Sequence record: DRR378314_2501
Strand: one strand, 5' to 3'
Length of the DNA stretch: 60,508 nucleotides
The position numbers and the translations under genes were made by a program. This document shows, piece by piece, positions 216-40,984 of the stretch. The number at the start of each line of letters is the position of its first letter. The first letter of the stretch is position 1. Below the pieces are notes generated by a model. The model was not told where the DNA came from, did no database searches, and saw only the letters and a program-made list of their open reading frames with translations.

Positions 216-1253
216 TTAGTTTAATACCTTGAATTCGATACGCCTGTTCTTCGCGCGATTATCGGCAGTACTATTGCCTACAAGAGGCGCAGTTTCACCG
301 TAGCCGACTGCGACCAAGCGGGACTGATCGGCGCCTTTTGTGATCAGGTGCTTGGTGACAGAAACCGCTCTCTGCCGACTCAGCTCCAAATTCCAAGCGG
401 CTTTGCCCCACGCGTCTGTGTGGCCGCCTACTTCGATCTTTAGATCGGGACATCTGTTCACGATATCAGCCAATGCATCCAAAAATGCTTCGGACGTTTC
501 CGCCACGTCTGATGAATTTGCCGCAAAGTTCACGCTGCGACTTTGTGAGAGCACTTCAAAACGCCCCTCGCATTCGCCGCGGTTAAATGTTCCGTTGGTT
601 TCCAACGCGACGCTGGCGTTTGTTGTGGTTTCCTGGGTCATGGCTCCTGCGTTGGAGCCGTTTCTCTGAAAGTAGAGATCAAGGCTTACGATACCGACGG
701 GCGTGATGGTGACATTCGCCGCCTCTTCCAGTTTTTCCAATCCAGAAAGAAGGTCGAAATCCGCCAGCGACAGAATTATGGGTTGTACGGTTGAGACGTT
801 GACCGTGTCGGTGTCCAGCAATGTCAGGGCGACCCGCGTGGACAGTTCAACTGTCACACCGTGAAGCTCCAGTGTAACCGGCAACTCCACGGTCTTGCGG
901 CCCGCCTCTGCCAAGTCAGATATTTGAGCCGAGGAGATCTGTGCAGAGACGCGCGCCTGACTGTGTTTGAACGTCTCGAAGAACAGGAACCGCATGCGGA
1001 CGTTGCGGAGATCAATGTTGGTGTCCACTGAATCCAGGGCGACGGTAACATCGGCATTTCCCGTGGGGTCGATGGTGCCAGTGAAAGATGCAAATCCACT
1101 ATACTCAGCGATCGTACCCTTCTTCACGGACAGGAAGCCGATGGAAGAACGTTCGGTGGCCAGTGTCCAGCCGCGCTCAAGCGGATTTGCGGACGCCAGC
1201 TGTGGGAGAAGTAAAAAGTTCAATAAGAACAGTTGGCAAAGGCGTTTTCTCAT
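216..1253 (-). CDS. Exported YceI-domain + OmpA C-terminal-like (peptidoglycan-binding) protein
   Basis: Signal peptide; YceI-like region (W.L...S.IGF.S.K, VALDSVDTNIDLRNVRM); OmpA_C motifs VNFA..S, IEVGGHTD, NLELSRQRA..V, VGYGE..P, NRRIEF. Confidence 0.85.
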   Translation of the reverse strand: MRKRLCQLFLLNFLLLPQLASANPLERGWTLATERSSIGFLSVKKGTIAEYSGFASFTGTIDPTGNADVTVALDSVDTNIDLRNVRMRFLFFETFKHSQARVSAQISSAQISDLAEAGRKTVELPVTLELHGVTVELSTRVALTLLDTDTVNVSTVQPIILSLADFDLLSGLEKLEEAANVTITPVGIVSLDLYFQRNGSNAGAMTQETTTNASVALETNGTFNRGECEGRFEVLSQSRSVNFAANSSDVAETSEAFLDALADIVNRCPDLKIEVGGHTDAWGKAAWNLELSRQRAVSVTKHLITKGADQSRLVAVGYGETAPLVGNSTADNRAKNRRIEFKVLN

Positions 1254-1456
1254 TGTTCTTTATCCTTTTCTTTTCTGTCCGCTCGCTCTGTCAGCCCAGT
1301 CTAGATTAGCCCAGTCTAGCACTCTCGTTGTGGAAAAGTACCGTTGCATTGACACTTCGGTAGGCGCGATTTGCGAAGATAGATAAATTGCCGATCATGA
1401 TGGTGATATGGTGGGCCCCTATCATGGCGCGAATCGTATTTCTCGCCGCAACGGGG

Positions 1457-2938
1457 ATGATGTTTGTGCAACGCGCTTTGAGTACCGTGAAATTCTGGGT
1501 CGGGCTCTTGATCGTATTGGGCGCCACCGTTTGGAACACTGTGGTTCATGCGGGGGATCGTATGGCGCTCGTGATTGGAAATTCGTCCTACGGCTCGGTT
1601 CCCTCGTTGGAGAACCCGGTGCACGACGCTCAGTTGATTGCGGAGACGCTGGAAGCCATGGCGTTCGAGGTCACATTGTTGACCGATGCCAGTCAGGTGG
1701 ATCTGAAACGCGCCATTGCGCAGTTTGGGCGTAGCTTGCGGGAACGTGATGAAGATGCGGTTGGTCTGTTCTACTATGCTGGTCACGGTGTGCAAAGTTT
1801 TGGCAACAATTACTTGCTGCCTGTAGATGTGTCGCTGAGCGATGCGGCTGACCTAGATTTGGTTGCAATTGAGGCGCAGTCGGTGTTGAGACAGATGGCG
1901 TCCGCTCGCAATACCACCAACATTGTCATTCTGGATGCATGCCGGAACAATCCCTTCGAGAACGTGACCGAGCTGAACGACAATGGTTTGGCCGAGATGC
2001 AAGCGCCTACAGGCACATTTCTGGCCTATGCCACGGCTCCCGGTGCGGTTGCGCTGGATGGTACCGAAGGTAATAGTCCATTCACACAAGCGCTGGCGCG
2101 GGAAATGAAGGCTGCGAACCAACCCATCGAACAGGTTCTAAAGCGTGTCAGGCGCTCTGTGCTTGACCACACCGATGGGCGTCAGACTCCATGGGATACG
2201 TCGTCGTTGGTCAGTGATTTCGTATTCAATGCGGTTACATCCGACCGTGCTGCTGATGCCTCTGATGCTGTTATCGCGGAACGGCAATTGTGGAGCATGG
2301 CCCGAGACAGTCAGGATGTCGTCCAGTTGATGTTGTTCTTGCGCAGCTACGGCCAGAGTGCGTATGCGGATGATGCCAGGGCGTTATTGAAGCAGCTGTC
2401 GGGCAACCAGCAGGGATCTTCTGCTACCGATGAAACGGCGATGTTCGAAGCGGCACATAATGAAGCTGGAATTGCAGCTCTTGAGGCGTATCTCCTGACG
2501 TTTCCAGAAGGACGCTACACCGAGCTTGCGATGGTAGAGATTGCAGCGCGCAAGCGTGGCAGGGAAGAAGATCCAGATCTAGCACCCGCCGAAGGCATTG
2601 TAACGAGCCTCATGGACACGCCTTTGAGCAACCAGATCGAAAACGGCCCGATAACTTTTATCCGCAAGCTTGAGTCTGATCTGGAGCAGGTAAATGGCCT
2701 ATCTTTGGAAGAGCTGGTCACACAGTCACCGATGTTTCCCCCGATTGCAGGCCTTCCTGACGAATATTGGAAGGATCAATCCTGCAGCAACTGTCACACT
2801 TGGACACGGGATGCGCTCTGCACTCAGGCCAAGACTTATTTGACCAGCAATTTGCAACGGTCACTGTCGAAACAACACCCCTTTGGCGGTGCGATGAAAC
2901 AGGCGCTGCGCAGTTGGGCCGGCGGTGAGTGCGGTTGA
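1457..2938 (+). CDS. Caspase-family (peptidase C14) protein with signal peptide, helical repeats and a C-terminal CxxCH motif; start uncertain (1388-1460)
   Basis: RMALVIGNSSY, L.NP.HDA, FYYAGHG (catalytic His), ILDACRNNP (catalytic Cys), AYATAPG.VA.DG, SPFT.AL, QTPW; CSNCH at 2783-2797. Confidence 0.88.
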   Translation: MMFVQRALSTVKFWVGLLIVLGATVWNTVVHAGDRMALVIGNSSYGSVPSLENPVHDAQLIAETLEAMAFEVTLLTDASQVDLKRAIAQFGRSLRERDEDAVGLFYYAGHGVQSFGNNYLLPVDVSLSDAADLDLVAIEAQSVLRQMASARNTTNIVILDACRNNPFENVTELNDNGLAEMQAPTGTFLAYATAPGAVALDGTEGNSPFTQALAREMKAANQPIEQVLKRVRRSVLDHTDGRQTPWDTSSLVSDFVFNAVTSDRAADASDAVIAERQLWSMARDSQDVVQLMLFLRSYGQSAYADDARALLKQLSGNQQGSSATDETAMFEAAHNEAGIAALEAYLLTFPEGRYTELAMVEIAARKRGREEDPDLAPAEGIVTSLMDTPLSNQIENGPITFIRKLESDLEQVNGLSLEELVTQSPMFPPIAGLPDEYWKDQSCSNCHTWTRDALCTQAKTYLTSNLQRSLSKQHPFGGAMKQALRSWAGGECG

Positions 2939-2956: not shown

Positions 2957-4465
2957 TCACTGCGGGGGCGTCGTAACGACCAGGAAATACACCCATTCAC
3001 CCTTGAAATTTGCATGCGACGCGCGTGCACTGGATACAGCGCGTTGCAGATCTTCAAGGTACTCGACGGCCGTCTCTTGAATGGGTCGTGGTGTCTGTTC
3101 CGAAAACAACGGATGTGATGCTGCAAAAGCGACGGCGATTTCCTGACCGTAAGGGGGCGCAACGGTGATTTGGAGACCAGCGCCGGTCGCTGTGCGCGCG
3201 CCGACGTCTAGTTGGGAGTGCGGTGGTGCGCGAGTAAGAGGAGTTGTCGCATTCGGGATCAGATGCAGAACGGAACCACTGGCATCAAAATAGTCGACAT
3301 AGACATATGCCGGATATTCTGGCGTGGTGAGTGCGAAGTATAGCTGATCTCCTCCTGAGAAGTTCAAGACGCGCGCGTATGCGTCCGCCCCCATCAGCAG
3401 AGGATTCGTGATCTGGTCGTTGCTTTGAGGGAGACCTGCAGACTCTATCCCGGCGAGGATTCCACATTGCGGGCGTGGGAGCAGGCGCGTGCGATCTGAC
3501 AAAGTGATATCGGAGCCCATTTCCGCTTGGAGGGCAGCCAGAACCGGAGCGCGAAGCGTCTCGTCAGGTAAGTGGCCTCTCAAGTGCAACGTTGCAGTGT
3601 CGGGGTCGAAGGACAGCTGAAGTCGTGCACAGGGGAGGGTGGACAGATAGCCGGATAGCCCATCACGCAAGGTGCGGCCTTCCTCGCCGGCGTCCAGAAG
3701 ACGGCTGTAGGCTGCAAGGGATTGCGGGTCGACGTTTTGTCCTTCGGCCCCGGGCAGCGCAAAGCTGGCACGGATGGTGTCAATCGGAGCGTTTGCAATG
3801 CTTGCTTCGACCGTGGCGGATGACTTTGGTGCGGCCATTAGCACGTCAGCGGAAGTTTTGACTGTCCCAAGCGGCTCGCTGTCTGGTTCGTCGGTCTGAA
3901 TCGTCAGCGCAGCCGCAGGAGCCTGTGATACCTCAATATCAGGGCGTATCTTCGCGACAGGTATCTCAGGTGCGACGATCCGACCCTGTTTGATATGGTC
4001 CGGTGTGACGTCAGATGCGATGGCTGATGTGGCTGCGGGGGCAGCGAGTGGCGCCGTTTGTCCGCTCGGCTCGGAAACTACCGGGGCGGACGACAGGGAA
4101 GCAGACTCTATGTTTTCCACTCGCTCCCCGGCAGCGAAATGCGCCCTCACGTTGGATGCAGGCGCCGCAATAGCTTCAGCTCTGGTTGTTGGCACAGTAC
4201 CAGATTGCACGCTGTCGGTCGCAGCTGCTGCTTCTAGTAGGACATCCCCGCGCGCTGTGCTCAGAGTGGGCCGGTTGCGCGGAACGCTTTTGGACGTAAT
4301 CTGCATTTCGGCACGGTGCTCATCCTGTTTTACCGTAGGCCTGGGCTGTAAGCTGAGAAGGACCATGCCAATCAGAACGCAATTCGCGACGAACGAGCCC
4401 AAAACGCCGGCGCTCCAGATCAACAGCCCGTTGCGCTGGCCATATGGTTCGACTGCAAGCGTCAC
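2957..4465 (-). CDS. Membrane-anchored protein with Ala/Pro-rich linker and C-terminal DUF4384-like domain, in the TonB position of an exbBDD operon
   Basis: N-terminal TM helix (AGVLGSFVANCVLIGMVLL), about 200 aa low-complexity A/P/S/T linker, C-terminal GDQLYF..T....AYVYVDYFDASGSVLHLIPN...V.PPYGQE..VAFAAS.PLF; GTG start overlaps the exbD stop. Confidence 0.7.
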   Translation of the reverse strand: MTLAVEPYGQRNGLLIWSAGVLGSFVANCVLIGMVLLSLQPRPTVKQDEHRAEMQITSKSVPRNRPTLSTARGDVLLEAAAATDSVQSGTVPTTRAEAIAAPASNVRAHFAAGERVENIESASLSSAPVVSEPSGQTAPLAAPAATSAIASDVTPDHIKQGRIVAPEIPVAKIRPDIEVSQAPAAALTIQTDEPDSEPLGTVKTSADVLMAAPKSSATVEASIANAPIDTIRASFALPGAEGQNVDPQSLAAYSRLLDAGEEGRTLRDGLSGYLSTLPCARLQLSFDPDTATLHLRGHLPDETLRAPVLAALQAEMGSDITLSDRTRLLPRPQCGILAGIESAGLPQSNDQITNPLLMGADAYARVLNFSGGDQLYFALTTPEYPAYVYVDYFDASGSVLHLIPNATTPLTRAPPHSQLDVGARTATGAGLQITVAPPYGQEIAVAFAASHPLFSEQTPRPIQETAVEYLEDLQRAVSSARASHANFKGEWVYFLVVTTPPQ

Positions 4466-4875
4466 GGGACGGGAGCCGCGTCTGGCGATACGATAAGAAC
4501 GATGTCTTCAATGCCAAGGGCTTCGGCCTGTGAAATCAGTGGAAGAACATTTCTGAGCTCCGCGTCTTGATGGGCGTTTATGCGTAGCCGCAGGCCGGGG
4601 TCTGACCGCAGCCCTTCTGCGAGCAGGTCGTTGATGTTGCGAGGATCTACCTCTCTGCCGCCCAATGCGAGGTGGCCGTCTGCGGAGATGGACAGGGTTG
4701 CACCGCCAGCGGGTAAGTCCTGGCCCGTGTCGGCAGTGGGGGGCGCAACGTCGAAGGGTGCTGTGGCATCCATTCGGCCGATGAGCATGAAGAAGACCAG
4801 CAGGAAGAACACCACGTCGATCAGCGCCGTAGTCGGCTCGCCCTGTGCGCTGCGACTGGGGCGGCGTAAATTCAT
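4462..4875 (-). CDS. exbD: ExbD/TolR family biopolymer transport protein
   Basis: Real start MNLRRP at 4875 (ATGA overlap with upstream stop); TALIDVVFFLLVFFML TM motif with the essential Asp; LRINAH.DA...V. Confidence 0.88.
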   Translation of the reverse strand: MNLRRPSRSAQGEPTTALIDVVFFLLVFFMLIGRMDATAPFDVAPPTADTGQDLPAGGATLSISADGHLALGGREVDPRNINDLLAEGLRSDPGLRLRINAHQDAELRNVLPLISQAEALGIEDIVLIVSPDAAPVP

Positions 4876-5288
4876 TGATGGGCCTCCAGTCGCAGAACAC
4901 GCAGGTTCTTGACCCCGGCGGTTGCGGCTGCATCCAGAACCGAAACCAGAGCCTGTGTTCTCGTCGCGCCAGTGGGGAGGATCAACACCTGCGTCTGAGG
5001 GGAGCTGGCCAGTTGTGAGGACAGCGCTCCCTGCAGAGCGCCCATTCCAAGAGGGCGCCCCCGTATCGCGGGCTGACCATTTGCACCGAGGCGAATGATG
5101 ACTGTGTTGGCCGACGCAGGCGAGGCGCCTTGCGCAGGGAGCGACGCTTGCGGGCTGCGGGCCGGGATCATGTCGAGGTTCAGGTATGTGGAGGTGACCA
5201 TGAAGAAAACGAGCAGGATCAGTAGGACATCGACCATCGGGACCAACGATATGAGACCGGGAGGCCGGGCGGGGCGGGTCAGTTTCAT
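4872..5288 (-). CDS. exbD: ExbD/TolR family biopolymer transport protein (second copy)
   Basis: ISLVPMVDVLLILLVFFMVTS motif with the essential Asp; Q.LVSVLDAA..AG. Confidence 0.88.
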   Translation of the reverse strand: MKLTRPARPPGLISLVPMVDVLLILLVFFMVTSTYLNLDMIPARSPQASLPAQGASPASANTVIIRLGANGQPAIRGRPLGMGALQGALSSQLASSPQTQVLILPTGATRTQALVSVLDAAATAGVKNLRVLRLEAHQ

Positions 5289-5935
5289 GACGGGTCGCCT
5301 GTCGCTCCTCCGGGGTCCTGAGCGGCCTCTTCGGCAAGCATCAGGCGGCCGACAGCATTCTCGACGCTCTGGGCAACCCGTTCGATCCGGGCGGAGAACA
5401 GGCCGGATGCAATTGCTGCGGGAATGGCGACAACAAGACCCGCGGCCGTGGTCAGGAGTGCTTGCCAGATCCCGCCTGCAAGAAGCGAGGCATTGGCGGC
5501 GCCTTCAGCCAGTTCCAGTTCTTGAAAACTCTGAATCATGCCGAGCACGGTCCCCAGTAGGCCCAGCAACGGTGAAACCATGGCCGTAATTTCGAGCATG
5601 CGAATGCGCCGGCTCAGGGTGGAGAGTTCAGAGCTGCCACGGCGCTCGATTTCCGATTGCAGCAGGGCAGGCCGCACGCCCGCAACGAGCGCCTTCATGG
5701 CGAACGCCAGGATCCTGTCAGCTGGCGCGCCGTCACCAAGCTGCCGCATGGCTTCGGAACGTTTGCCCTGTTGCCATGTCCTGAGTATCCGGGTTCGGTT
5801 CTCCTCGCCCGACAGCACGGGCCAAAGCTCGATCAGCTTGACCACAATAACCGTGAGAGATGCGAGGGAGAGCAGGCCAAGAACCACCAAGATCGGCATG
5901 CCCGTTCCCATGTTGTCCAGGAGCTGGTTCATCAC
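5285..5935 (-). CDS. exbB: ExbB/TolQ/MotA family proton channel protein
   Basis: SPLLGLLGTVLGMIQSF and GIWQALLTTAAGLVVAIPA signature helices. Confidence 0.92.
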   Translation of the reverse strand: MMNQLLDNMGTGMPILVVLGLLSLASLTVIVVKLIELWPVLSGEENRTRILRTWQQGKRSEAMRQLGDGAPADRILAFAMKALVAGVRPALLQSEIERRGSSELSTLSRRIRMLEITAMVSPLLGLLGTVLGMIQSFQELELAEGAANASLLAGGIWQALLTTAAGLVVAIPAAIASGLFSARIERVAQSVENAVGRLMLAEEAAQDPGGATGDPS

Positions 5936-6357
5936 TACTTCACCAGGCGCGCATCAGTGCGTGATGCCAGATCGAGTATGCTGAAGCAGTCGATCTCGTC
6001 TTCATTCTGTGGCTGGCACTTTGTTATGTCGTGCAGCAGGATTTCCGAGATGTTGCTGCAATTCAGCTCTGGAATTTCAAAGAGTTTCAGTGTGGTGCGC
6101 GCGACGGGCAGGGGGGCGGCGTCGATTGATAGCAAGCGGTCGATGACGCCATCACCATCAAGCACCGCCAGCGACATTTCAAAGCCGGAAAAACTGTTGC
6201 CGGTCTCATTTTTGAACAGGAAAAACGCACGGCACCCGCCGCTTTCGATCTCTTCCGTCTTGTTGAGTTCGACAGTGAGGCGCTCATTTGCCATGACAGG
6301 TGATACTCCCAGAGCAATGGCGGCAATCAGGATGATCGATTTGAAAATTCTCTTCAT
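5935..6357 (-). CDS. Small exported protein with four Cys, directly upstream of exbB
   Basis: MKRIFKS... signal peptide ending VMA-N; LTVELNK.E....CR..F...N; stop abuts the exbB start. Confidence 0.7.
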   Translation of the reverse strand: MKRIFKSIILIAAIALGVSPVMANERLTVELNKTEEIESGGCRAFFLFKNETGNSFSGFEMSLAVLDGDGVIDRLLSIDAAPLPVARTTLKLFEIPELNCSNISEILLHDITKCQPQNEDEIDCFSILDLASRTDARLVK

Positions 6358-6419
6358 GCGGCTTCTCCAAAGAATGGCGGGATCGGCGAGTGCCCCCGGC
6401 CCAATAGGCCGGACCGAGA

Positions 6420-7265
6420 TCAAACGATGGCACCAAGCGCCGTTTCGATTCGGTCCATGACGACGCGCGCCTTGTCGTAATCACGCTGTTTCAGCAGGCG
6501 CGCGGCCACATGGACGGCACGGTCCAGCTTGGTCCGGTGGCTGCCCGGTACACGGCCGACCGAAGCGCGCAATTGCTTTGCCCGCTGAAGATCCGCGCCG
6601 AGAGTGCGACTGCGTCCCTCCCGATCCGCCCGCTTCATACTTGCATCTGCATCTTCACGATCCGCACCGATCCGGGCGACAGCTTGTTCGACGACAGTCA
6701 ACAGGGTTTGCGCTTCTTCCAGACGGCCTTCGTTGATGTGGCTGAGGGATTTCGACAGCCCCAGTTTCAGTTTGCGTTCCAGTGGGCCAGGCGCCTGCCC
6801 AATACGGGATTTGATTCTCTTTGCGCGTGCCAGCAGGGGGCGAACAAGTTTCTGATCGACGGAAGGAGTGCTCACTTCGTCCAGAGTGGTGACGCCATCG
6901 TCGCTTGTTGATTTTTCCGGCTTCAAACTGTCGAGGAGGTTGCCGCCGTCATCGCGAAACAGGACGTTCACCTTCGGCTTGTTGGCGCGCAGAAACTTCT
7001 TGAGGTTTGTAATCGCTTTGGTCGTAGCTTGTTCGCAGGTCATCTCCATTTCATCGGAGCGAACGACATAGGTGCCCCAAGTCATTGGAGACTTACCGCC
7101 TTCTTTTTTCAATAGTGGGCGCAATTGCTCAGGTTTGCTGCCGGGTTGGATCAGCAGCAAGGGGTCGCTGTTTCCATCCATGCAGAACGCGAAACTCGTG
7201 CGACGCTTGGCGCCTTCACGGACCATGGAGCGTATTTCGCTGCCATCTATTCGCGTCGGTTTCAT
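6420..7265 (-). CDS. Hypothetical basic protein with two C-terminal helical repeats; start 7265 preferred over 7334
   Basis: Long ORF, GGAG-type RBS before MKPTRID; divergent from tssA; no family recognised. Confidence 0.7.
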   Translation of the reverse strand: MKPTRIDGSEIRSMVREGAKRRTSFAFCMDGNSDPLLLIQPGSKPEQLRPLLKKEGGKSPMTWGTYVVRSDEMEMTCEQATTKAITNLKKFLRANKPKVNVLFRDDGGNLLDSLKPEKSTSDDGVTTLDEVSTPSVDQKLVRPLLARAKRIKSRIGQAPGPLERKLKLGLSKSLSHINEGRLEEAQTLLTVVEQAVARIGADREDADASMKRADREGRSRTLGADLQRAKQLRASVGRVPGSHRTKLDRAVHVAARLLKQRDYDKARVVMDRIETALGAIV

Positions 7266-7436
7266 GGCTGCAGTCTCCACCAAAGCTTCAAAACAATTGA
7301 CAAAGAGCATTCGACAAGGCTCACTTTGGGTCAAGTTATTGTTTTGTTGCTCGGTATTATTCGTTGCGGCATGCGTGGGATTGGTTCACAGTTCCAGTGG
7401 TACAAAAAACGCGTTGCCGACGGGGGTTAGTGAAGA

Positions 7437-8498: not shown

Positions 8499-8574
8499 TA
8501 GAAACTCATTTCCGGTTTGGCGCGACGGACCTCTTTCCCGCGCAGGATAAGAAATGACGAGCGAGGAGGCCTAG

Positions 8575-9090: not shown

Positions 9091-9109
9091 AATTTAAGGA
9101 GGGACACAC

Positions 9110-10606: not shown

Positions 10607-10683
10607 TTTTAGGTCGCGTATTTCAACTTCACTCGAAAACAACTTCGAACTCGAAAAATCATCTGATCTGAAAGGAATGAACA

Positions 10684-11184: not shown

Positions 11185-11209
11185 AACCGCAGGCTTGCGT
11201 GTTGTACTA

Positions 11210-11235
11210 GTCCCGGGCGTTTCGGTGCCCGGGAC
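11210..11235 (+). promoter_or_regulatory. GC-rich stem-loop with UUCG tetraloop downstream of hcp (mRNA stabiliser or partial terminator)
   Basis: GTCCCGGGCGT-TTCG-GTGCCCGGGAC, 9 Watson-Crick pairs plus 2 G-U pairs; no U-tract. Confidence 0.55.
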
Positions 11236-11277
11236 CACTCGCATTGAACTACACAGAGTTTCAGGGGGAAGCGCTTC

Positions 11278-12577: not shown

Positions 12578-12578
12578 C

Positions 12579-26242: not shown

Positions 26243-26329
26243 ATGGGCAGACCCGCTCTTGAGGGGAACAGGCGTGCTGGCACGGCTCACCACCGATCTG
26301 GCGAGCGGGAGGCATTTTCATGGGCGTAA
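26243..26329 (+). pseudogene. Possible 5' remnant of a PAAR gene (28-codon mini-ORF starting MGRPA)
   Basis: AGGAGA RBS at 26228-26233, ATG GGC AGA CCC GCT; sits where PAAR would be expected; stop overlaps the tagH start. Confidence 0.3.
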
Positions 26330-33600: not shown

Positions 33601-34202
33601 TGGCGGATTTTGCCAAGCTGTTCTCACCAGGAGGGTTGATTGACGGTTTTTTCAATCAGCATCTGACCCAATACGTGGATACGGCCACGAACCCCTGGAC
33701 CTTCAAATCCACAGGCGCGGGTGCAGATCTTGGTATCAGTCAGGCGGTGCTGAACCAGATGCAATATGCCGCAGAGATCCGGGATGCCTTTTTTGCATCA
33801 GGTACGGCGCCATTGGTTCCGTTCCAGATCACGCCCAAGGCACTGGACCCAAAGGCCAAGGAAATGATCCTCGAAATCGATGGAACAACAGTGGCATTCA
33901 ATCACAAGATGGGCCAGCCCACACCTGTTGCAGTGACCTGGCCCGGATCTGTTGGATTGGCCCGTATCACATTGAACCCCAATCGGCGCAGCAGTGAAAA
34001 TGTTCTCTCCAAAGATGGCCCATGGGCGTGGTTCCGATTGCTTGATGCGGCGGAAGTGCGGCGGACCAATGCAGTGGATCGCAGACGCGTGAACTTTACT
34101 GTCGGGGGCCGATTGGCACTGTACGAATTGCAGGCCGGGTCGGCGGTAAATCCCTTTGCCCTGCCCGCCATGGCCAAGTTTTCTTGTCCGAAGTCGATGT
34201 AA
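30627..34202 (+). CDS. tssM: T6SS membrane subunit TssM (IcmF)
   Basis: LPWYIMIGPPGAGKTT, GTRNCDWWF...AVLIDTAGRY, R.RQPING, FPVYVVFTK.DL, GPWAWFRL. Confidence 0.96.
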   Translation: MIRRYILPLFRSIYTILILLAAALSACIWFFAPFIGSDSWRPFDSVSSRLITIAILWALTLLTLLLIALLRARRDRQMTEEMAEVVDTIEDDVIGEELVELKGKFKIALTELRKSKNGRKHLNQLPWYIMIGPPGAGKTTAIVNSGLQFPLADKLGKAAIGGVGGTRNCDWWFTNQAVLIDTAGRYTTQESDEETDNAAWLGFLNLLKKYRKRQPINGAIIAISLSDLSLQDEMTQKAHATAIRNRLAELRGRLGVRFPVYVVFTKADLIAGFQEYYDTLGKEEREQVWGFTLPLVKSKSDADPVTRFDEEFGGILGQLNAQLLEKMQAETDPQRRALVAGFPSQVASVRSVAREFLKEVFQDNAYQKRQMLRGVYLASGTQEGTPIDRLMLGMAQTFGIGRQAIGTGKGTGRSYFLTRLFEGVMFPEAGLVSSDDKVERRYLWARGIAVAATVLVSLTMGGLWVNSFLKNKSMIADASAQVDQYQASASSLPPSPVGDSDLVPVVAALNLLRDLPGNPVLSTPDPSLSETYGLYQGEVIGTQGAQTYRSALNRRFLPRLLVRLEEQIAGNMNDVDALYETLKIYLMLGLQGPMNPDLVKEFLNKDWTDVTYSGVVRQQLRADLNDHLNALLSQPMEEVVLNGDLIAQARGVLAEMPMSQRVYSGIINSRTATELPQWRLTDVGGPEITRVMTRNSGKPMAEGIEGIFTHNGFNNVFLTEAVSVSNRVQSEAWVLGDSSQEAQSEAALLSLSRDVLDLYYNDFIGRYDDLLGDLDVIPLQSLNQAVDVTRILSGASSPIENVLRAVAKETQLTQSQSALDTTAVNEGLGQVANLEAQSNLSIQGQILLEALMKSTPAQGGPKQLPPGMFVENRFAWLHQMVDAPEGQPSQLDGLMGLLLTVYQELNKMTISGISAGGASSQALLQFQQTASQYQGPMQRWAKQITVGSSGITSEGTRASINAAWQSDVLPFCTQALSNRYPFNRSARADVAMADFAKLFSPGGLIDGFFNQHLTQYVDTATNPWTFKSTGAGADLGISQAVLNQMQYAAEIRDAFFASGTAPLVPFQITPKALDPKAKEMILEIDGTTVAFNHKMGQPTPVAVTWPGSVGLARITLNPNRRSSENVLSKDGPWAWFRLLDAAEVRRTNAVDRRRVNFTVGGRLALYELQAGSAVNPFALPAMAKFSCPKSM

Positions 34203-34885
34203 TGACGGCCGGTTTCGGAGCCTTTGGCAAAATGCCGACGGTCGGAGATTTCTTCCGGCTGTCGCCTCCGGCGGGATTCGTCAGAATTTGGGACCCCTGG
34301 ATCCAGTCGGTGATGACCGCGGGGCAGGGGGCTTATGGGCCGCATTTCGATCAGCATTATATGTCTGCCCCGATTTGGCGGTTTACGATTCCATCAGGTG
34401 TCGCAGGCGCGCAAAAACTTACTGGCGTGTTGATGCCGTCAGTCGACAGGGTGGGGCGGCGTTTCCCACTGACGCTGGTCAGTGCTCTGCCGACTCCGGG
34501 CCCGGTCGCCTGCGATCATCTCAGTGATACCGAGCTGTTTGAGCGTCTCGAAGATATCGCGCTGGATTGTCTGGAAGACAATATGAACCAGGAGCGTCTG
34601 GCCCGCCTTCTCGAAACAGTACAGGTGCCTGATATGCGCGCGGTTGCACCGCTTCGGGCAAACGACGAGTGCATCGTTTTGACCGGCGTAGGCGAGGTCT
34701 CGCGGCTACCGTTAGCAGTCGCAGGTGGGTTATTGGAACAACAGGGCCCCGACTTAAGTGTTTGGTCTGCCGTTCTGGACGGAAAACCGCGTATGCTCGC
34801 GTGCAAGGGCCTCCCGACGGGCTCACATGCTCTGGGTCTATTCGACCTTAGCGCAAGCGTATGGAGAGAGGCCCGGCCACTATGA
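34202..34885 (+). CDS. tagF: T6SS post-translational repressor TagF
   Basis: G.FGKMP..GDF, APIWRF, GVLMPSVDRVGRRFPL. Confidence 0.94.
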   Translation: MTAGFGAFGKMPTVGDFFRLSPPAGFVRIWDPWIQSVMTAGQGAYGPHFDQHYMSAPIWRFTIPSGVAGAQKLTGVLMPSVDRVGRRFPLTLVSALPTPGPVACDHLSDTELFERLEDIALDCLEDNMNQERLARLLETVQVPDMRAVAPLRANDECIVLTGVGEVSRLPLAVAGGLLEQQGPDLSVWSAVLDGKPRMLACKGLPTGSHALGLFDLSASVWREARPL

Positions 34886-35604
34886 CAGAGATGCGGAATA
34901 CCCGTTTCATTGCCCAGACGCACACAGGGCTCGTCCGAAAGGTGAACGAGGATTCCGTTCTGACCTTGCCAGAACATGAAATTTGGCTCGTCTCTGATGG
35001 GATGGGAGGGCATGATGCCGGTGATTTCGCGAGCCGTTTGATTGCGGATATGGTCGCTACCATCCCGCAAGATCTCGATCCGGCGGCAAGGATGCATGCC
35101 TTACGTGACGCAATACACGGGGCGCATCACGCGATTCAGGCCGAATCCGCACGGCGCGGCGGCACGACGATCGGTGCGACCGTCGCAACATTGGTTATCA
35201 GCCAAGGTTACTTTCTGTGTCTATGGGCCGGGGACAGTCGTATTTATCGGTTGCGGAATGGCCGGATCGAGCTCCTGACTGCGGATCATTCAGCTGTTGC
35301 AGAGTATGTCTTGGCTGGAAAAATGAGTTGGGATGAAGCAGATCAGCACCCGCAATCCAATGCCATCACACGTGCTGTCGGAATTGAAGGTGATCTAATC
35401 CTCGACAAGGTGCGTGGCGAGACGGCACCAGGTGATCGTTTCCTGCTGTGCTCGGATGGGCTGACAAAATACGCAACATTCTCGATGCTTGAGGATGTGC
35501 TATCCACGACCCCATTGGAAACACTCGGTGACAGACTGATCCAGATTGCATTGACCGGCGGAGGTGCCGACAATATTTCAGCCATCATCGTAGACGTTCT
35601 CTAG
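34882..35604 (+). CDS. pppA: PP2C-family Ser/Thr phosphatase (PppA-like)
   Basis: TH.G.VR..NED, VSDGMGGH.AG, WAGDSR.Y, LLCSDGL, GGADNIS. Confidence 0.9.
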   Translation: MTEMRNTRFIAQTHTGLVRKVNEDSVLTLPEHEIWLVSDGMGGHDAGDFASRLIADMVATIPQDLDPAARMHALRDAIHGAHHAIQAESARRGGTTIGATVATLVISQGYFLCLWAGDSRIYRLRNGRIELLTADHSAVAEYVLAGKMSWDEADQHPQSNAITRAVGIEGDLILDKVRGETAPGDRFLLCSDGLTKYATFSMLEDVLSTTPLETLGDRLIQIALTGGGADNISAIIVDVL

Positions 35605-35622: not shown

Positions 35623-37806
35623 TCACGGTTGCGCGGTGGTCAGTATGCTGCTGTCGAGCGACAGAACCCGCCCAGCGTCACCAGTCGCGCTCTTCTGAAG
35701 CGCTTCTGCAAAACTTGCGGCACTTTCAGCAGTGGGGCGCATCCCATCGAACAAAGGTTGAGCGGAATGCAGAATTAAAATTTTGCTCTTGCCCAAAGTG
35801 CTGTCATCGACCTTGAAAGCAATGCCTCCTGTATCATCCCGTGCATCAAGACTATAGGCGACGCGGATCGACAACTCCCCGGTTTTCCCGTCTCTCAATT
35901 TCTCTACGGCCTGGGTTTGACGGTTGATGTTGGGCAGTAGGTGAAACACGTTGCCCGTAACGTCCAAGATGGACACGGTCAGGAACCCGTCGGTCAGGCT
36001 TGCTGGCAAGACAACGTCGATTACCGGATTCTCACCTACAAAAAAGCGGCCCGAAGGGTTGGTGTCACCGTTCGCACCATTGGCATATGTCACGTCTATC
36101 CCGCCTTTAGGCGCCTTCGGGAGATGTTGTTCGACAATGCAGAGCGCAGGATTCAGCACTTCGAGATCAAGATTGACTGATCGCCCTTTTGCGACGGCTG
36201 TAAGCGCGTCAAAAAGACGAAGTTGGGTCTCCGTACCGGCCACTTGACCGACCACTCGGAGCGCCTCGTCGGGAGCATATCCGGTTCCCCCCGATGATCC
36301 TTGCAGAACCAAAGGGCCACAGTCCGAATGGTTGGCCACGACAGCGGCAGGGATCTGGCGGTCCAACAACGGGAGCTCAAACGCGATGGTGACAATTCCC
36401 ACCAATGCACCGGGTAAATCTCCTCCGAAGAACCCGTCAAGATCAGCAAGCAGTTCTGCGTTCGACGTTGTGCCCGAGAGCTTGGCCTGATTGTTCTCGA
36501 CCACAAAGCGCCAATCTTCAAGTTCCGCCAGCGGCTCGAGAGTAAAAAGGACATCGCGCAGCCACGTATCAGCGATTTCTCCCGACGCCAGTTCCAGTTC
36601 GCCCTCGTCGACCAATTCCATCAGCGCCGCATGCCCGTCCTCACTCGGAACGTTGCCCGCAGCGCGAACCGGTCCGCCAGCACTGCGTTCAACGATCAGG
36701 CGAAAGGGCTCGGCGGCGGGGTAGTTTGGTGAGAACACGCCGTCCAGCGCACCGCTCATCCAGGCACCGGCTCCACCAAAGCCCACAATAAGAACCGCAA
36801 TGAGCAAGCTCAGTTTCCCACGACCACGCCCACGTTGCGCAGCCGCCATTGGAGCAGGATCTTGCGGTGGATTGACTGTGGAGCGCGGGGTGAGGATCGT
36901 GGCGTCATTCACCGGTTCGGAAGGGGTTCCAATCAGGGCGTCAAGCGGGTCGCCGGTTTGGGCAGTCTCACTTGATCGGGCATCGGAAGCATGGAGAAAT
37001 GCAAGGACCTCACCGGCGGTTTGAAAACGATCCTGAGGGCTTGGTGCGCACATCCGTTCGATCAGTGTCCGGAACGGGTCAGGAAGATCGTCGGTCTCCA
37101 ACGGTTTCTTCTTGTTCTCGACCACTTCCATCGGATTGGCGCCCAACGAAGGGGGGCTGCCGCGGAAGTTCGCGAGAAGGAGCGCCCCCAATGAATAGAT
37201 ATCCGAGCGGGCATCGGTCTGACCGCTCATTTGTTCGGGAGCCGCATAGGCATATTTGCCGGCAAACTCGTTTCCGACGATCGTCTCGGCACCGGGATTT
37301 GTATCCTTCGCAATGCCGAAATCGATGATAACCGCCTGTTCCGGATCTCCATCGCGCAGAATGATGTTGTCGGGGCTTAGGTCTCGGTGGACAATTTTTC
37401 GTTTGTGCGCTGCCTGGAGCCCTTCGCTCACCCGTCGACAGATCGTCAACAGATCCGTCACCGGCATGGGACCGTTCTTCAACTTTCTGTCCAGCCCAGG
37501 TCCGTCGATATAGTCCATCAGAAGATAGATGCGCCCATCCGGAGTTCGGTGATTTTCCGAATAGCGCACAACGGAATCGTGCCTGATTTCCCGGATGTTC
37601 TCTTCGCGCGCCATCAAGACGGTGAAGTCTTCGTTGCCCGAAAACTCCTGCTTCAGAACTTTCAAGGCAACGGTGTTTCCGGAAATTTCTGAACGAGCCT
37701 TATAAACCTCAGACGTACCGCCGCGACCTAGTAGGGCCTCGATGCGATAGGTATTGTTCAGCAAATCACCGGGTTCGAACATATCCCCGGGTCGGGAGCC
37801 GATCAT
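35623..37806 (-). CDS. ppkA: Membrane Ser/Thr protein kinase (PpkA-like) with periplasmic region ending in a DUF4384-like domain
   Basis: LGRGGTSEVY, VALK, HRDLSPDNI, IDFG, YAAPEQ, SDIYSLG; one TM helix; C-terminal GFLTVSILDVTGNVFHLLPN. Confidence 0.88.
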   Translation of the reverse strand: MIGSRPGDMFEPGDLLNNTYRIEALLGRGGTSEVYKARSEISGNTVALKVLKQEFSGNEDFTVLMAREENIREIRHDSVVRYSENHRTPDGRIYLLMDYIDGPGLDRKLKNGPMPVTDLLTICRRVSEGLQAAHKRKIVHRDLSPDNIILRDGDPEQAVIIDFGIAKDTNPGAETIVGNEFAGKYAYAAPEQMSGQTDARSDIYSLGALLLANFRGSPPSLGANPMEVVENKKKPLETDDLPDPFRTLIERMCAPSPQDRFQTAGEVLAFLHASDARSSETAQTGDPLDALIGTPSEPVNDATILTPRSTVNPPQDPAPMAAAQRGRGRGKLSLLIAVLIVGFGGAGAWMSGALDGVFSPNYPAAEPFRLIVERSAGGPVRAAGNVPSEDGHAALMELVDEGELELASGEIADTWLRDVLFTLEPLAELEDWRFVVENNQAKLSGTTSNAELLADLDGFFGGDLPGALVGIVTIAFELPLLDRQIPAAVVANHSDCGPLVLQGSSGGTGYAPDEALRVVGQVAGTETQLRLFDALTAVAKGRSVNLDLEVLNPALCIVEQHLPKAPKGGIDVTYANGANGDTNPSGRFFVGENPVIDVVLPASLTDGFLTVSILDVTGNVFHLLPNINRQTQAVEKLRDGKTGELSIRVAYSLDARDDTGGIAFKVDDSTLGKSKILILHSAQPLFDGMRPTAESAASFAEALQKSATGDAGRVLSLDSSILTTAQP

Positions 37807-37851: not shown

Positions 37852-38418
37852 TCAGCCTAGTGCTTGGAATTCTACGCGCCGGTTCTCATCGGCACGGGGG
37901 TCGGCAGGATTGAACGGTGCAGTCTCTCCCATTCCGATGGCCTTCAGCGACTCGGCCGTTATCCCGCAGTCACTTACCAGATGCCGCCGCACTTCTTGCG
38001 CGCGCAGGAGCGATAGGCGTTCGTTATACGTGACCGACCCGGAGCTATCGGTGTGGCCGATGATCTGGAACACGGTCCCATCCATGACCTTCATCGATTC
38101 GCACATGTTTGCCAGTTTCGGCTTCTGATCATCACGAAGGGTGGCACTGTCAAAGTCAAAGGAGATCTGTACGTTGATCTGCGTCTCCGATTCCACTGCA
38201 TTGTACTCTTCGGATGCTGCGGCGATCGTAGTTGCACCGGTCTCTTCAGCAGCGGTCTCGCTATCGGTAGCGTTTGGCACGATCACCAGACCACGGGTCT
38301 TTTGCTTCTTGAAGGCCTCAGTGATTTCTTCGACGGACAGATCCTCGGCAGCCAAAGGCGTGCTCAAGCAGATTGCGGCGGTGAAAATCGACAGTGCCAA
38401 AGTGCGGAACTGGACCAT
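37852..38418 (-). CDS. Exported OmpA C-terminal-like peptidoglycan-binding protein
   Basis: Signal peptide; ISFDFDSA.L, IIGHTDSSG...YN..LS..RA, IG.GE, ENRRVEF. Confidence 0.9.
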   Translation of the reverse strand: MVQFRTLALSIFTAAICLSTPLAAEDLSVEEITEAFKKQKTRGLVIVPNATDSETAAEETGATTIAAASEEYNAVESETQINVQISFDFDSATLRDDQKPKLANMCESMKVMDGTVFQIIGHTDSSGSVTYNERLSLLRAQEVRRHLVSDCGITAESLKAIGMGETAPFNPADPRADENRRVEFQALG

Positions 38419-38595
38419 GAATACGCCCTCCCATATAATTCCACTTTAGTTGAGCAGAGTTTATACTACCCCTGTCACTGTGCCAATGGTCACGGGCCAG
38501 GCCTCCATCGAAACAGAGCGATTACACGCATATAAATAGGCAGGATTGCGTTTCCATCAAAATTGCATCCAAACCATCAGACTTTAAGGACGATC

Positions 38596-39438
38596 ATGAA
38601 GGTCATTCCCGCCATTATCATAGCTGTCGGCCTCATCGGCGCCTCCGCCCTTTGGTTTGGACTATCCTACCTGTTCAATGAGCAGGGATATGGAAGCGGC
38701 GCGGTGGATTCAGAGGCCCGGATCGACATCGAGCTCCTGCGTCAACAGCTGGAAGATACACAGGTAAAACTGGATGACCTGCAAACGGCACTCGGCGCAC
38801 TCTCGACGCGGAACACGCCGGTTGCCCCATCGCCGAACCTTCAGGACGAAGAAGACAGCCTACTGCGCCAGACTGGTCCGAATGCTATTTTGGACTCCTA
38901 TGCGCAGGTGGTTCTGATTGCCGATCGGAGGAACGTGAATGATGGACTGAAAGTCGCAGGTGGAACCTATCTTTCGGAGAAGCTCGGCCGGCCACGCGAC
39001 AATCTGACAGATGATTGCCAGCCGATGACAAACCAGAGACTGAAGGACAAGCTGGTTCTCGAACAAGTTGGTCCCATTCGGGTGCGTATGCTTACGCCTG
39101 CAGTCGAGAGTTTGAAAGTGGTGTTCGCAAACATCCAAAAAGCGGATCCGGACCTCTACGAGCGGATCAACACGGCCGGATCCCTCTGTGTGCGCCGCAT
39201 CCGGGGCACACAGAACTCACTTTCGACTCACAGCTATGGCCTCGCCGTAGATCTGAACATCGATGGTCGCCTGGACACCCTGGGGGATGGAAAAACTCAA
39301 CTTGGCCTGACGATACTCGCCGACTTTTTCAAAGACGAAGGTTGGGTCTGGGGCGCAGGCTTCGGGCGCGAGGATAGCATGCATTTCGAGATCAGCCGAC
39401 GGCAACTGGATTTGTGGTTGGCCGAGGGACTGCTCTGA
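38596..39438 (+). CDS. Membrane-anchored M15-family zinc peptidase (peptidoglycan endopeptidase/carboxypeptidase, TagX-like)
   Basis: N-terminal TM and coiled coil; R.IRG....STHSYGLAVDLN (SxHxxGxAxD), W.WG..F...DSMHFE. Confidence 0.85.
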   Translation: MKVIPAIIIAVGLIGASALWFGLSYLFNEQGYGSGAVDSEARIDIELLRQQLEDTQVKLDDLQTALGALSTRNTPVAPSPNLQDEEDSLLRQTGPNAILDSYAQVVLIADRRNVNDGLKVAGGTYLSEKLGRPRDNLTDDCQPMTNQRLKDKLVLEQVGPIRVRMLTPAVESLKVVFANIQKADPDLYERINTAGSLCVRRIRGTQNSLSTHSYGLAVDLNIDGRLDTLGDGKTQLGLTILADFFKDEGWVWGAGFGREDSMHFEISRRQLDLWLAEGLL

Positions 39439-39445
39439 AATTCCC

Positions 39446-40984
39446 TCAGCTATCCTCAATTCCATAAGCCCGGCGGATACCACGTTGCGTTCCTGGACCA
39501 AAATCTCCATCGATCGCACCGGTGTAGAATTCGTTGTCCCTCAGCCGCGCCTGCAAGGCACGTCTGGTCTCGGAGGTGAACATCGTGGGGCGCTCGCTCA
39601 ATAGGTTAAGCACATCCTGACTGCCGGATCGCAGTGCCTCATATAGGTATTTCGCCGCATCTTCCGGCCCCTTCGATGCAATGTGTCCGTCATCTATCAA
39701 CGCAGCAAAGTTGAACTGCGCCTGTGGATGGCGCAAATCCGCAGCGCGTTCAAAATATCGCAGTGCCTTGCCTGGGTCGGCGGGCAACCCCAGTCCCCCT
39801 TGGTAGTAGAGGAACCCGAGATCGTTGATGGCATCAGCGAAATTTTGTTCTGCCGCAGCGCGATACAGTTCCAAAGCCCTCTCTTCGCTCTGCTCGACAC
39901 CGGTGCCGCGTTCATAAAGTTTTGCCAACTCGAACTGCGCTTCAGGTGATCCAGCCTCTGCCGCTCGGGTCAAAAAGCTGACTGCGGCCTCAGGATCGAA
40001 CCGGCCTTCATTGGGATTAAGGCGCATATAGGCCAAGCCCAACATGGACCTGGTATCACCGAGATCTGCCAGCGCCAGAAGCTGATCCTCCTGATCTGGG
40101 CGAAGGTTGGCCCAGGCCTTGGCTGCATCACTTGCGTCTAACGACTTGTCACCGTCACCTGGTCCGGCGAGATAGAACGGAATACCAGTCAGAGAACCAT
40201 AAGTATGCGGTTCCTGCAGATTTGCCGTACGCTCCAGCACCCCATCGCGCACCTGCCGGAACATCAGGCTGATTTCGAGTCCGGGTTGGGTCATCTTGTC
40301 CATCAGGGCCAAGGCGAACGGGCTGTTGTCGCCACTGCCGTCAAGCGCGACTTGGCCGTCTTTGGCTGCAAAGGCCACCAGTGTACCACGGTCCGGATTT
40401 GCGGCCGCAAGCCCGCCGCCACCGCGTGTCGTTTCGCTAGAGGGGCTGGTTTCGCTGGTTTGTTCACTTGCGAGCGTGATTGCATCTCCCAATGGGTTGT
40501 CGCGACAGCTGTCGAGTATGACGATGCGCATTTTGCGCGCCCGGTCCACGGCTGAAAGAAACTTCTTAAGAGACGGCGACTGATCCTGCACGTCCTTGTT
40601 CGATGCAACATTTGCATCAACCGGGATCATGAAGTTTTCGCCCTGAACCTCGATCCCGTGTCCTGCGTAATAAATCAACGCAAGATCAGCCACTTCCGAT
40701 TTGAAGGCGAATTCGTCGAGCAAGCGATCCATTTCTGCCCCGCTCGCATCAACTGACAAGGTTACGTCGAAGCCAATTTCCTCAAGCGTATTCGAAATCG
40801 CGACAGCATCGTTTCGCGTGTTGGTCAACGATGGCAGGTTGCGGTAATCTGCCATACCAAACACAAGCGCTATCCGGTCACTGGCAGCGCTCACAGGGCG
40901 TATACCGCCCAATGCACTGAAACAAATGAAGGTCAGGGTGAGCAGAAGTAGTACTCTGCACGTGATCACAGACAAGTTAAGCAT
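39446..40984 (-). CDS. Caspase-family protein with SEL1-like repeats and a C-terminal peptidoglycan-binding domain
   Basis: Signal peptide; IYYAGHG, ILDSCRDNP; AQFELAKLYE.G.GV, AINDLG.LY.QG; Q..L....FY.G.IDG.FGPGT. Confidence 0.9.
   Translation of the reverse strand: MLNLSVITCRVLLLLTLTFICFSALGGIRPVSAASDRIALVFGMADYRNLPSLTNTRNDAVAISNTLEEIGFDVTLSVDASGAEMDRLLDEFAFKSEVADLALIYYAGHGIEVQGENFMIPVDANVASNKDVQDQSPSLKKFLSAVDRARKMRIVILDSCRDNPLGDAITLASEQTSETSPSSETTRGGGGLAAANPDRGTLVAFAAKDGQVALDGSGDNSPFALALMDKMTQPGLEISLMFRQVRDGVLERTANLQEPHTYGSLTGIPFYLAGPGDGDKSLDASDAAKAWANLRPDQEDQLLALADLGDTRSMLGLAYMRLNPNEGRFDPEAAVSFLTRAAEAGSPEAQFELAKLYERGTGVEQSEERALELYRAAAEQNFADAINDLGFLYYQGGLGLPADPGKALRYFERAADLRHPQAQFNFAALIDDGHIASKGPEDAAKYLYEALRSGSQDVLNLLSERPTMFTSETRRALQARLRDNEFYTGAIDGDFGPGTQRGIRRAYGIEDS

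Follow-up and report, generated by a model that had tools for sequence, protein, structure and literature searches.

A roseobacter-type type VI secretion cluster without tssJ carries four separable accessory modules, among them a sodium channel paralogue and an ExbB-ExbD-DUF4384 operon

The triggers of type VI secretion system (T6SS) firing are known in few lineages, through TagQRST, RtkS and TslA. Accessible sections of a 2026 review of accessory factors (PMC13584744) describe RtkS of Serratia as a lineage-specific periplasmic regulator of the kinase PpkA, and they report that working T6SSs without TssJ exist. Closer to the locus studied here are the T6SS1 clusters of roseobacter squid symbionts (Leisingera, Ruegeria and Tateyamaria), which, according to the main text of Suria et al. 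2022 (PMC9515649), likewise lack tssJ, have a sheath nearest to that of H1, and encode a fusion named TssCL beside normal tssB and tssC genes. We analysed positions 216-40984 (31 genes) of a stretch of 60,508 nucleotides from sequence record DRR378314_2501, hereafter the window, and found a complete roseobacter-type T6SS cluster without tssJ, under PpkA, PppA, Fha and TagF regulation, to which four lineage-specific accessory modules are attached. Each of these modules accompanies T6SSs in relatives, yet each can be gained or lost singly.

Gene order in this cluster is the same as in roseobacter T6SS1 as far as the main text of PMC9515649 presents it, and the missing tssJ, the FHA and impE genes and the fusion (two VipA matches, one VipB) are shared as well; four of our related loci (L018, L023, L024 and L037) come from strains of that study. 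Its main text describes only TssCL, leaves the channel, TolQ/MotA, ExbB and caspases unmentioned, and draws other genes as ‘other’ (supplementary tables may list them). Families were assigned by Pfam and NCBIfam scans of the listed open reading frames (ORFs). The plus-strand core runs from tssA through pppA (7437-35604). To its left, in the opposite direction, lie genes for a 304-residue protein and a 162-residue exported protein, followed by exbB, exbD, exbD and a BON-like/DUF4384 gene, with a C14 protease gene (plus strand) and a YceI-OmpA gene (minus strand) beyond. To its right lie ppkA (minus), a small OmpA-like gene (minus), a Peptidase_M15_4 gene (plus) and a C14-Sel1-PG_binding_1 gene (minus). 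We group the accessory genes into a paralogue of bacterial voltage-gated sodium channels (BacNaVs) together with TssCL; a five-gene IrmA-like/ExbB/ExbD/ExbD/DUF4384 operon; two exported C14 proteases; and a TagX-like M15 peptidase with an OmpA-like and a YceI-OmpA protein.

Occurrence in relatives was surveyed in 80 related loci (L numbers) out of 326 stretches matched, 14 of the 80 ending at most 3.0 kb from the match at contig ends; in 251 genomes of the family, drawn evenly (G numbers); in the neighbourhoods of 20 of 27 TssCL genomes, the seven with short contigs being omitted; and in 401 class-wide genomes (Alphaproteobacteria). A TssC-type match, obtained through cross-matches of one diverged query, marks 58 of the 251 family genomes as T6SS-positive. 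The operon's DUF4384 protein (E <= 1e-56) is found in 26 of the 251, 25 of them T6SS-positive (Fisher p 2e-17, ignoring kinship), and full-length orthologues of the second protease, caspase 2 (E <= 1e-181), in 25, of which 24 are T6SS-positive; the exception in both cases is G061, a 3.1-Mb assembly in short contigs. The T6SS-type channel (E <= 1e-98) occurs in 19 genomes, each time at a T6SS, and is missing genome-wide from nine of the 27 TssCL genomes. A reading of this DNA from its sequence alone, the sequence-only reading, had proposed one system in which the accessory genes form a sensing input to the T6SS, and had named their independent assortment from the T6SS as the outcome that would speak against it. 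Such assortment was not seen, since the operon and caspase 2 are almost confined to T6SS genomes and the channel clade is T6SS-only. The single wired set did not survive the same neighbourhood survey, in which modules are present or absent singly. The accessory genes are real T6SS companions, as several separable modules and not as one wired system.

The channel gene (18389-19246, plus strand; 285 residues; Ion_trans 4e-39) is of the voltage-gated Na+ channel type that had been named for this cluster, with NavMs (E 2e-79) and NavAb (E 9e-74) as the nearest solved structures. It shows the features of a BacNaV: a single six-helix Ion_trans domain, an S4 Arg at every third position and a selectivity filter, TLESWSM (stretch TLESWSMGIVRPVM), that is the same as in NavMs and NavAb. 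In the alignment every row, 79 of 79 T6SS-linked and 18 of 18 housekeeping, retains this filter and four S4 Arg. A quick maximum-likelihood tree (quick search only, with some rows being one genome fetched twice) parts the two sets by one branch with SH-aLRT support of 99, and the S4-S5 linker and cytoplasmic tail hold the residues specific to the T6SS-linked clade. BacNaVs as a whole are found in 169 of the 251 family genomes, mostly as the housekeeping type at 47-60% identity, while the T6SS type is seen only within T6SS clusters, between clpV and vgrG; one genome, the closest relative (G001), has both. The T6SS-linked channel is, on this tree, a dedicated BacNaV paralogue with a clade of its own. 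It shares with NavMs, NavAb and NaChBac the six-helix Ion_trans domain, the filter, the four S4 Arg and a C-terminal helical tail, and differs from them as a second copy besides a housekeeping paralogue, placed inside a T6SS operon and changed in its S4-S5 linker and tail.

The channel gene stands immediately upstream of TssCL in all 66 of the 80 related loci that extend far enough upstream. In 58 of these, its predicted stop and the start of TssCL share 7-11 nt, a gap of 4-9 nt separates the two in seven, and L073 is the remaining one; in the cluster studied, the stop codon overlaps the TssCL start. In L073 (8593-11002) no more than ~0.6 kb separates the end of the channel from the TssC-like module, with no TssB-like head found; either TssCL is headless there, or the repeat-rich linker was collapsed in the assembly. 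One genome (G226:C26, locus L155, 14476-15237) has a T6SS-type channel, 61% identical, between clpV and vgrG without a TssCL gene, so the channel's tie to the T6SS is not strictly dependent on TssCL. Overall, channel and TssCL seem to have been inserted as a pair, between clpV and vgrG, in a T6SS that is older and by then possessed the outer modules. From clpV to the channel the distance is 173 nt here, whereas many relatives (L010-L042 and others) hold an additional 1-4 kb at this point. A scan of 17900-23600 for promoters and terminators gave chance levels (three promoter-like sites against 2.7 expected, three terminator-like sites against 4.4 expected). A metagenome bin labelled Granulosicoccus (Gammaproteobacteria; L061) holds a roseobacter-type locus with a TssCL module 71% identical, which points to mis-binning or transfer.

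TssCL itself (19239-23312, plus strand; 1357 residues; VipA 7e-67, VipB 3e-39, no VipB_2) agrees with its published description (a full VipA domain, a second, short VipA match and one VipB), with VipA in two stretches and one VipB besides separate tssB and tssC genes. Residues 1-170 are a TssB copy, 76% identical over its full length to the TssB of the cluster. An acidic linker follows (residues 166-960; 26% Asp+Glu, net charge -174, at least 11 motifs of the type DD-[LIVM]-L-x-[GS]-L), and then a TssC-like module (residues ~960-1300, VipB at 987-1270) without the C-terminal gp25-like domain (no VipB_2), and a tail that is 44% acidic (1301-1357). Within the module, residues 988-1270 align with residues 74-370 of the cluster's TssC at 29% identity, and the module also aligns with residues 33-325 of the 461 of P. 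aeruginosa TssC1 (5n8n_B). The long size class of homologues numbers 380, and lengths among the best 120 (some partial) span 752-1536 residues, so linker length is free. Most of the TssCL heads from 13 genomes group in a clade apart, and the heads are 73-85% identical to the TssB of their own cluster; such a head could occupy the place of TssB beside TssC, with the rest hanging off it. A complex predicted from four channel copies (residues 122-285) and TssCL 960-1300 scored 0.00, run without controls, and is evidence neither way. The giant sheath fusion had been presented as part of an undescribed system; the fusion is there, and it is already known, having been published in 2022 as TssCL, a name found in no other paper in a search with subscription journals outside it. 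Draft assemblies often break within the acidic, repetitive linker (G063, G152, G170, G129 and G038), which leaves the T6SS cluster in two contigs and makes the annotated lengths of TssCL unreliable.

The second module is an operon on the minus strand, divergent from tssA, in which an IrmA-like gene is followed by exbB, two exbD genes and the DUF4384 gene. The ExbB/TolQ-family proton-channel protein (exbB, 5285-5935; MotA_ExbB 1.5e-30) and two ExbD paralogues (4872-5288, ExbD 5e-21; ~4462-4875, start approximate, ExbD 2e-18, with the transmembrane Asp in its translation) precede a protein (2957-4465; DUF4384 4e-8) composed of an N-terminal membrane helix, an Ala/Pro-rich linker and a periplasmic module with BON-like (a sub-threshold match) and DUF4384 parts. 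GldLM and AglRQS are related envelope motors. Compared with ExbB-ExbD-TonB and TolQ-TolR-TolA, the operon likewise has an ExbB-family channel, ExbD-family proteins with transmembrane Asp and a membrane-anchored, long-linker protein with a periplasmic head. Its head is BON-like plus DUF4384 in place of TonB_C or TolA_III, and it adds an IrmA-like periplasmic member and a tie to T6SS-bearing genomes. A TonB_C domain found no Pfam match in the DUF4384 protein even at E 5. The motor genes and DUF4384 domain that had been read from the sequence are thus present, and the protein is ‘TonB-like’ in topology only because it lacks a TonB_C match; of a TonB system the locus encodes ExbB and ExbD, and no TonB with a TonB_C domain. 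The exbB at the T6SS is an extra paralogue, other ExbB/TolQ-like genes of 31-43% identity being found elsewhere in the genomes of relatives.

These features bear on the idea that the motor is an uptake partner, which would drive a scavenging protein secreted by the T6SS into the cell by way of a receptor in the outer membrane. T6SS metal-acquisition effectors dock on TonB-dependent receptors, and an ExbB with two ExbDs and an envelope-spanning partner beside a T6SS would suit such a role. The missing TonB_C domain of the arm speaks against it, as does the lack of a TonB-dependent receptor gene in the cluster; around stand-alone copies of the operon (20-kb stretches), only the five operon genes matched the 31 queries, which is a weak test for receptors. 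We regard an uptake function as very unlikely.

The first gene of the operon (5935-6423, minus strand, probable start ~6357) encodes an exported protein of 162 residues with a signal peptide, no Pfam match and four Cys that are invariant in 15 aligned sequences. It is the best-conserved operon member (53-80% identity). Its model (predicted local distance difference test, pLDDT, 89.7) resembles Escherichia coli IrmA (5ek5) with Z 11.6, against 8.0 for the next match (Foldseek E 3e-5); this modelled likeness is one of fold, not function. Next to it, a gene for a poorly conserved protein of 304 residues (6420-7334, minus strand) was placed in no family and is 26-77% identical or not detected in relatives. 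A protein-atlas search with both proteins returned only ‘hypothetical protein’ clusters, plus the IrmA lead for the shorter one.

The DUF4384 gene is single-copy and lies ~18-20 kb from the TssCL tail in the five of five genomes first tested. Among the 16 neighbourhoods that reach past tssA, the operon is present there in 11, usually with caspase 1 and the YceI-OmpA gene beyond. All five genes are found elsewhere in the genome, unlinked to the T6SS, in three genomes (G134, G135 and G180). The operon also stands beside T6SSs of the same type without TssCL (G019 and G233), and beside a divergent T6SS subtype in G218, whose core proteins are 25-36% identical. Class-wide, strong orthologues were found only in G001 and one other of the 401 genomes, on which account the operon is a roseobacter speciality.

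Both C14 proteases had been described as exported and with intact His/Cys dyads, which is borne out here. Caspase 1 (1388-2938, plus strand; C14 2e-41) has an N-terminal hydrophobic segment and a Cys-containing C-terminal part of no assigned family, and adjoins the DUF4384 gene in relatives. Caspase 2 (39446-40984, minus strand) has a signal peptide, C14 (1e-34), Sel1 (3e-22) and PG_binding_1 (2e-5). Both thus start with hydrophobic export or anchor segments. Aligned with MALT1, both have YYAGHG, and LDACR (caspase 1) and LDSCR (caspase 2) are matched, in agreement with Peptidase C14; we take the YYAGHG and LDxCR motifs to hold the catalytic His and Cys. A likeness of the Sel1 part of caspase 2 to MotX of the sodium-type flagellar motor (E ~7e-5 to 1e-4; NCBIfam 2e-9) was judged to reflect shared Sel1 repeats only. 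The closest relative's 236-kb plasmid (G001:C7) has two caspase-2 copies (3229-4569 and 172399-173835), 85-86% identical to the one studied here.

These proteases and the widespread families around them raise the possibility of hitch-hiking cargo, in which channel, motor and caspases have unrelated functions (ion homeostasis, uptake, programmed cell death, phage defence) and merely share a mobile, often plasmid-borne island. The locus of the closest relative (L004) does lie on a 236-kb plasmid, the modules assort semi-independently, and generic C14 matches (84 of 251 genomes) are common, as are BacNaVs (169 of 251). PADLOC matched both C14 proteins to a caspase model of a generic kind, which would also fit; the channel, ExbB, ExbD1, the DUF4384 protein and the 162- and 304-residue proteins matched no PADLOC model, and the defence-system reading was dropped because the generic model was all that this search gave. 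Cargo would leave unexplained why the T6SS-linked channel is a separate clade found only in T6SS clusters between clpV and vgrG, why the operon accompanies two T6SS subtypes, and why a T6SS is missing from only one of 26 operon genomes and one of 25 caspase-2 genomes, in each case the small, fragmented assembly G061. We consider it improbable.

The threonine-phosphorylation circuit offers a connection to one of the modules. As the sequence-only reading had stated, the set is complete, with PpkA, PppA, an FHA protein with T6SS_FHA_C and TagF all recognized by Pfam and NCBIfam, and TagQ, TagR, TagS and TagT found no match among the 31 genes of 216-40984. The genes are fha/tagH (26320-27831, plus; FHA 1e-15, T6SS_FHA_C 2e-58), tagF (34184-34885, plus; TagF_N 4e-36), pppA for the PP2C phosphatase (34861-35604, plus; PP2C_2 8e-13, NF033484 7e-55) and ppkA (35623-37806, minus; Pkinase 3e-37), which encodes a Ser/Thr kinase with a membrane helix at about residue 340 and a periplasmic part. 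The latter, 370 residues long, has no Pfam match. PpkA and the DUF4384 protein match each other by BLASTP (E 4e-5), and an hhalign comparison of 14 PpkA tails with 12 DUF4384 modules gave a probability of 96.3% and an E of 1.7e-9 over 196 columns across the BON-like and DUF4384 parts. In G180, one ORF of 779 residues joins a kinase to a module 36% identical to the DUF4384 module studied. From these profile alignments, the periplasmic part of PpkA is, by every indication, homologous to the C-terminal module of the DUF4384 protein. Twelve places with weak matches were fetched from other Alphaproteobacteria, and five of them are PpkA ORFs of 747-778 residues inside T6SS clusters that end in the module (L171-L175, in G564, G537, G324, G524 and G611); the DUF4384-like module appears to be the usual sensor of alphaproteobacterial PpkA. 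DUF4384 is also a C-terminal domain in a family of proteobacterial Ser/Thr kinases (bioRxiv 10.1101/2025.01.12.632604) and an accessory domain of orthocaspases (PMC7475262), as far as the accessible parts of these two sources go. Through this homology and these occurrences, one domain ties together the kinase sensor, the motor arm and the neighbouring caspases.

Because the periplasmic part of PpkA copies the BON-like/DUF4384 module, we propose that the motor operon relays the state of the envelope or of the proton-motive force to PpkA through the shared module, that the caspases act on this module, and that TssCL and the channel modulate sheath assembly; we give this reading a probability of roughly 40%. 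The ExbB-ExbD motor would spend proton-motive force to move or load the DUF4384 arm, and this arm may pair with the PpkA sensor, or compete with it, for a single partner in the envelope. PpkA activity, hence Fha phosphorylation and T6SS assembly, would in this way depend on the envelope's energetic and mechanical state, with the operon in the role of TagQRST in P. aeruginosa or RtkS in Serratia. The caspases, from a family often fused to DUF4384, would probably act on DUF4384 modules. TssCL might join or cap the sheath by its TssB head, a step that the channel could tune by membrane voltage or Na+ entry. The claim of an alternative input to PpkA gains from the module homology and the G180 fusion, in a form in which the modules are separable within one T6SS clade and the single wired set is given up.

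Kinase, phosphatase, FHA protein and TagF are shared with the H1-T6SS of P. aeruginosa. The present cluster differs from it in having no TagQRST, in an ExbBD-coupled protein as candidate upstream input, and in a PpkA periplasmic part of the BON-like/DUF4384 type. The periplasmic domain of Pseudomonas PpkA differs from this module. RtkS is likened to the DUF4384 protein by role, not by sequence: in the accessible sections of PMC13584744 it is a precedent for another protein replacing TagQR on the periplasmic domain of the kinase, whereas the candidate here has a membrane anchor, is coupled to a motor and is itself paralogous to the sensor.

Several observations weigh against the proposed relay. 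Homology of two periplasmic domains is no proof that they interact, and the fold matches of the DUF4384 module are merely generic (Z at most 7.0). The operon is absent beside tssA in five of 16 neighbourhoods, and two TssCL genomes (G241 and G250) have no operon match genome-wide. Operon and ppkA are uncoupled in their presence, as G020 has the operon with no ppkA found nearby and G241 has ppkA and no operon. The inner pair is likewise dispensable: the channel is missing in three of the 17 neighbourhoods that have clpV and TssCL on one stretch (G011, G107 and G241), G233 and G019 have all modules except channel and TssCL, and G226 has the channel without TssCL. The T6SS-positive definition leans on one diverged query, and the co-occurrence statistics ignore kinship among genomes. 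The sensing-input reading is therefore plausible but unproven: linkage, motif conservation and domain homology are observed, and all action is inferred.

A further-reaching version of the proposal would have the T6SS gated by membrane energetics. Depolarisation by attack or envelope injury would open the BacNaV, acting through TssCL, with its TssB head, polyanionic tether of 800 residues and TssC-like end, to start, cap or release a sheath; loss of proton-motive force would stall ExbBD, and the DUF4384 arm would then free the PpkA sensor for Fha phosphorylation, with periplasmic caspases resetting or committing the switch. We think this quite unlikely as a whole. If this holds, a BacNaV of a Gram-negative marine bacterium would for the first time have a physiological role assigned to it, and T6SS firing would gain a new class of input. 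BacNaVs are structural workhorses whose biological role is obscure in most bacteria, and a T6SS-locked paralogue gives them a testable function. Roseobacters are abundant, non-pathogenic and genetically tractable, which opens these predictions to direct testing.

The data are almost as compatible with a structural or energising role, in compensation for the absent TssJ, as with sensing. In such a scheme the accessory genes would build and anchor the membrane complex and open the wall and outer membrane for the spike, by means of the ExbBD motor and the arm that spans the envelope, anchors of the OmpA type, the TagX-like peptidase and a caspase bound to peptidoglycan. The core itself is otherwise whole. 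All 12 members of the subtype i set (TssA, B, C, Hcp, E, F, G, ClpV, VgrG, K, L and M) are encoded together (E 1e-19 to 1e-201), on the plus strand: tssA (7437-8498; ImpA_N 7e-27, TIGR03363 9e-57), tssB (8575-9090), tssC (9110-10606; VipB 7e-132 and VipB_2), hcp (10684-11184), tagJ/impE (11278-12087), then tssE, tssF (9e-201) and tssG between tagJ and clpV within 7437-18215, clpV (15420-18215), vgrG (23385-25577), and tssK, tssL (DotU and OmpA) and tssM between fha and 34202. No ORF of the cluster matched tssJ, and PF12790 was found in none of five genomes of relatives; this agrees with the tssJ-less roseobacter clusters in the main text of PMC9515649. A PAAR gene was likewise not found in 216-40984, where no gap exceeds ~180 nt and there is consequently no space for either gene, nor for a TagQRST gene; PAAR genes are mentioned for clusters of this kind in the main text of PMC9515649. 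Genes for effectors, PAAR or immunity proteins are not evident in the cluster studied. Of 80 related loci, 78 retain the DUF6931 gene that immediately follows vgrG (25587-26219, plus strand).

The cell-wall proteins of the cluster, of which several had been noted as peptidoglycan-binding from sequence, favour this structural role. OmpA domains are found in three proteins, PG_binding_1 in caspase 2, and there is the Peptidase_M15_4 protein. The left end of the conserved set is an exported YceI plus OmpA-like peptidoglycan-binding protein (216-1253, minus; OmpA 7e-20, YceI 4e-12), found at the same cluster end in relatives, and a small exported OmpA-like peptidoglycan-binding protein (37852-38418, minus; OmpA 4e-17) is conserved beside ppkA. 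The M15 peptidase (38563-39438, plus; M15_4 2e-11 at the C-terminus, N-terminal hydrophobic segment) is membrane-anchored and near-constant, in 17 of 20 neighbourhoods. It is a candidate TagX-like endopeptidase, likened to Acinetobacter TagX by description and not by sequence: domain, anchor and locus fit the inner-membrane anchor and periplasmic VanY/M15-superfamily peptidase set out in the accessible text of PMC13584744. The Acinetobacter TagX/TsmK/TslA set is similar in having no tssJ and a membrane-anchored peptidase of this superfamily in the locus, and differs in that the motor, caspases and channel are extra genes here. The same review, in its accessible sections, has TsmK and TagV compensating for TssJ. 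In addition, the N-terminal half of the periplasmic module resembles ring-building and BON motifs in its AlphaFold2 model (pLDDT 83.8; CdsD Z 7.0, DolP Z 6.0), although fold matches this generic (Z <= 7.0) are too low to tell kin from a common arrangement, and we drew no function from them. The structural role is further weakened by the lack of the operon in part of the same T6SS clade and its position far from the T6SS in three genomes, and it leaves unexplained why PpkA carries the same module. We consider it the main rival to the relay, though unlikely on balance.

The sequence-only reading had known of no characterised T6SS with this gene set. This stands for the channel, ExbBD and caspase links, and fails for the published TssCL. 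No paper in our literature search (titles and abstracts, with subscription journals and supplements outside it) connects a T6SS with BacNaV, ExbBD or caspases. Judged by title or abstract, none of the papers on DUF4384 concerns T6SS, none on T6SS and voltage-gated sodium channels reports a channel gene in a T6SS locus, and all those on T6SS with ExbB, ExbD and TssA, among the matches listed, are gene inventories or reviews. The accessible sections of PMC13584744 leave ExbB, TonB, caspase, ion channel, proton motive and membrane potential unmentioned, and those of a 2026 survey of plasmid T6SSs leave ExbB, caspase and TonB unmentioned. Within these limits, main texts included, we found nothing in print on the BacNaV clade locked to T6SSs, on the ExbBD/DUF4384 operon, on the association with caspases or on the homology between PpkA and DUF4384. 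A widespread marine clade here offers candidate inputs of another kind than those known, namely a paralogue of voltage-gated channels that is restricted to T6SS operons, and a motor driven by protons with an arm that copies the kinase sensor domain. The PpkA-DUF4384-caspase link is also a handle on a DUF that recurs in kinases and orthocaspases.

Beyond the T6SS island, a chemotaxis operon adjoins it at 41141-48472, with cheD and cheB on the minus strand and cheA, cheW, cheR and a cheY-like receiver gene on the plus strand. It is followed at 48793-53315 by a molybdate-type ABC transporter (modABC; SBP_bac_11, permease, ATPase with TOBE) and then an ECF biotin transporter (ABC_tran, CbiQ, BioY). 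A protein of the HTH_29/HTH_32 type seen in the N-terminal parts of IS-element transposases is encoded at 53464-54069 and may be the remnant of a mobile element near the island.

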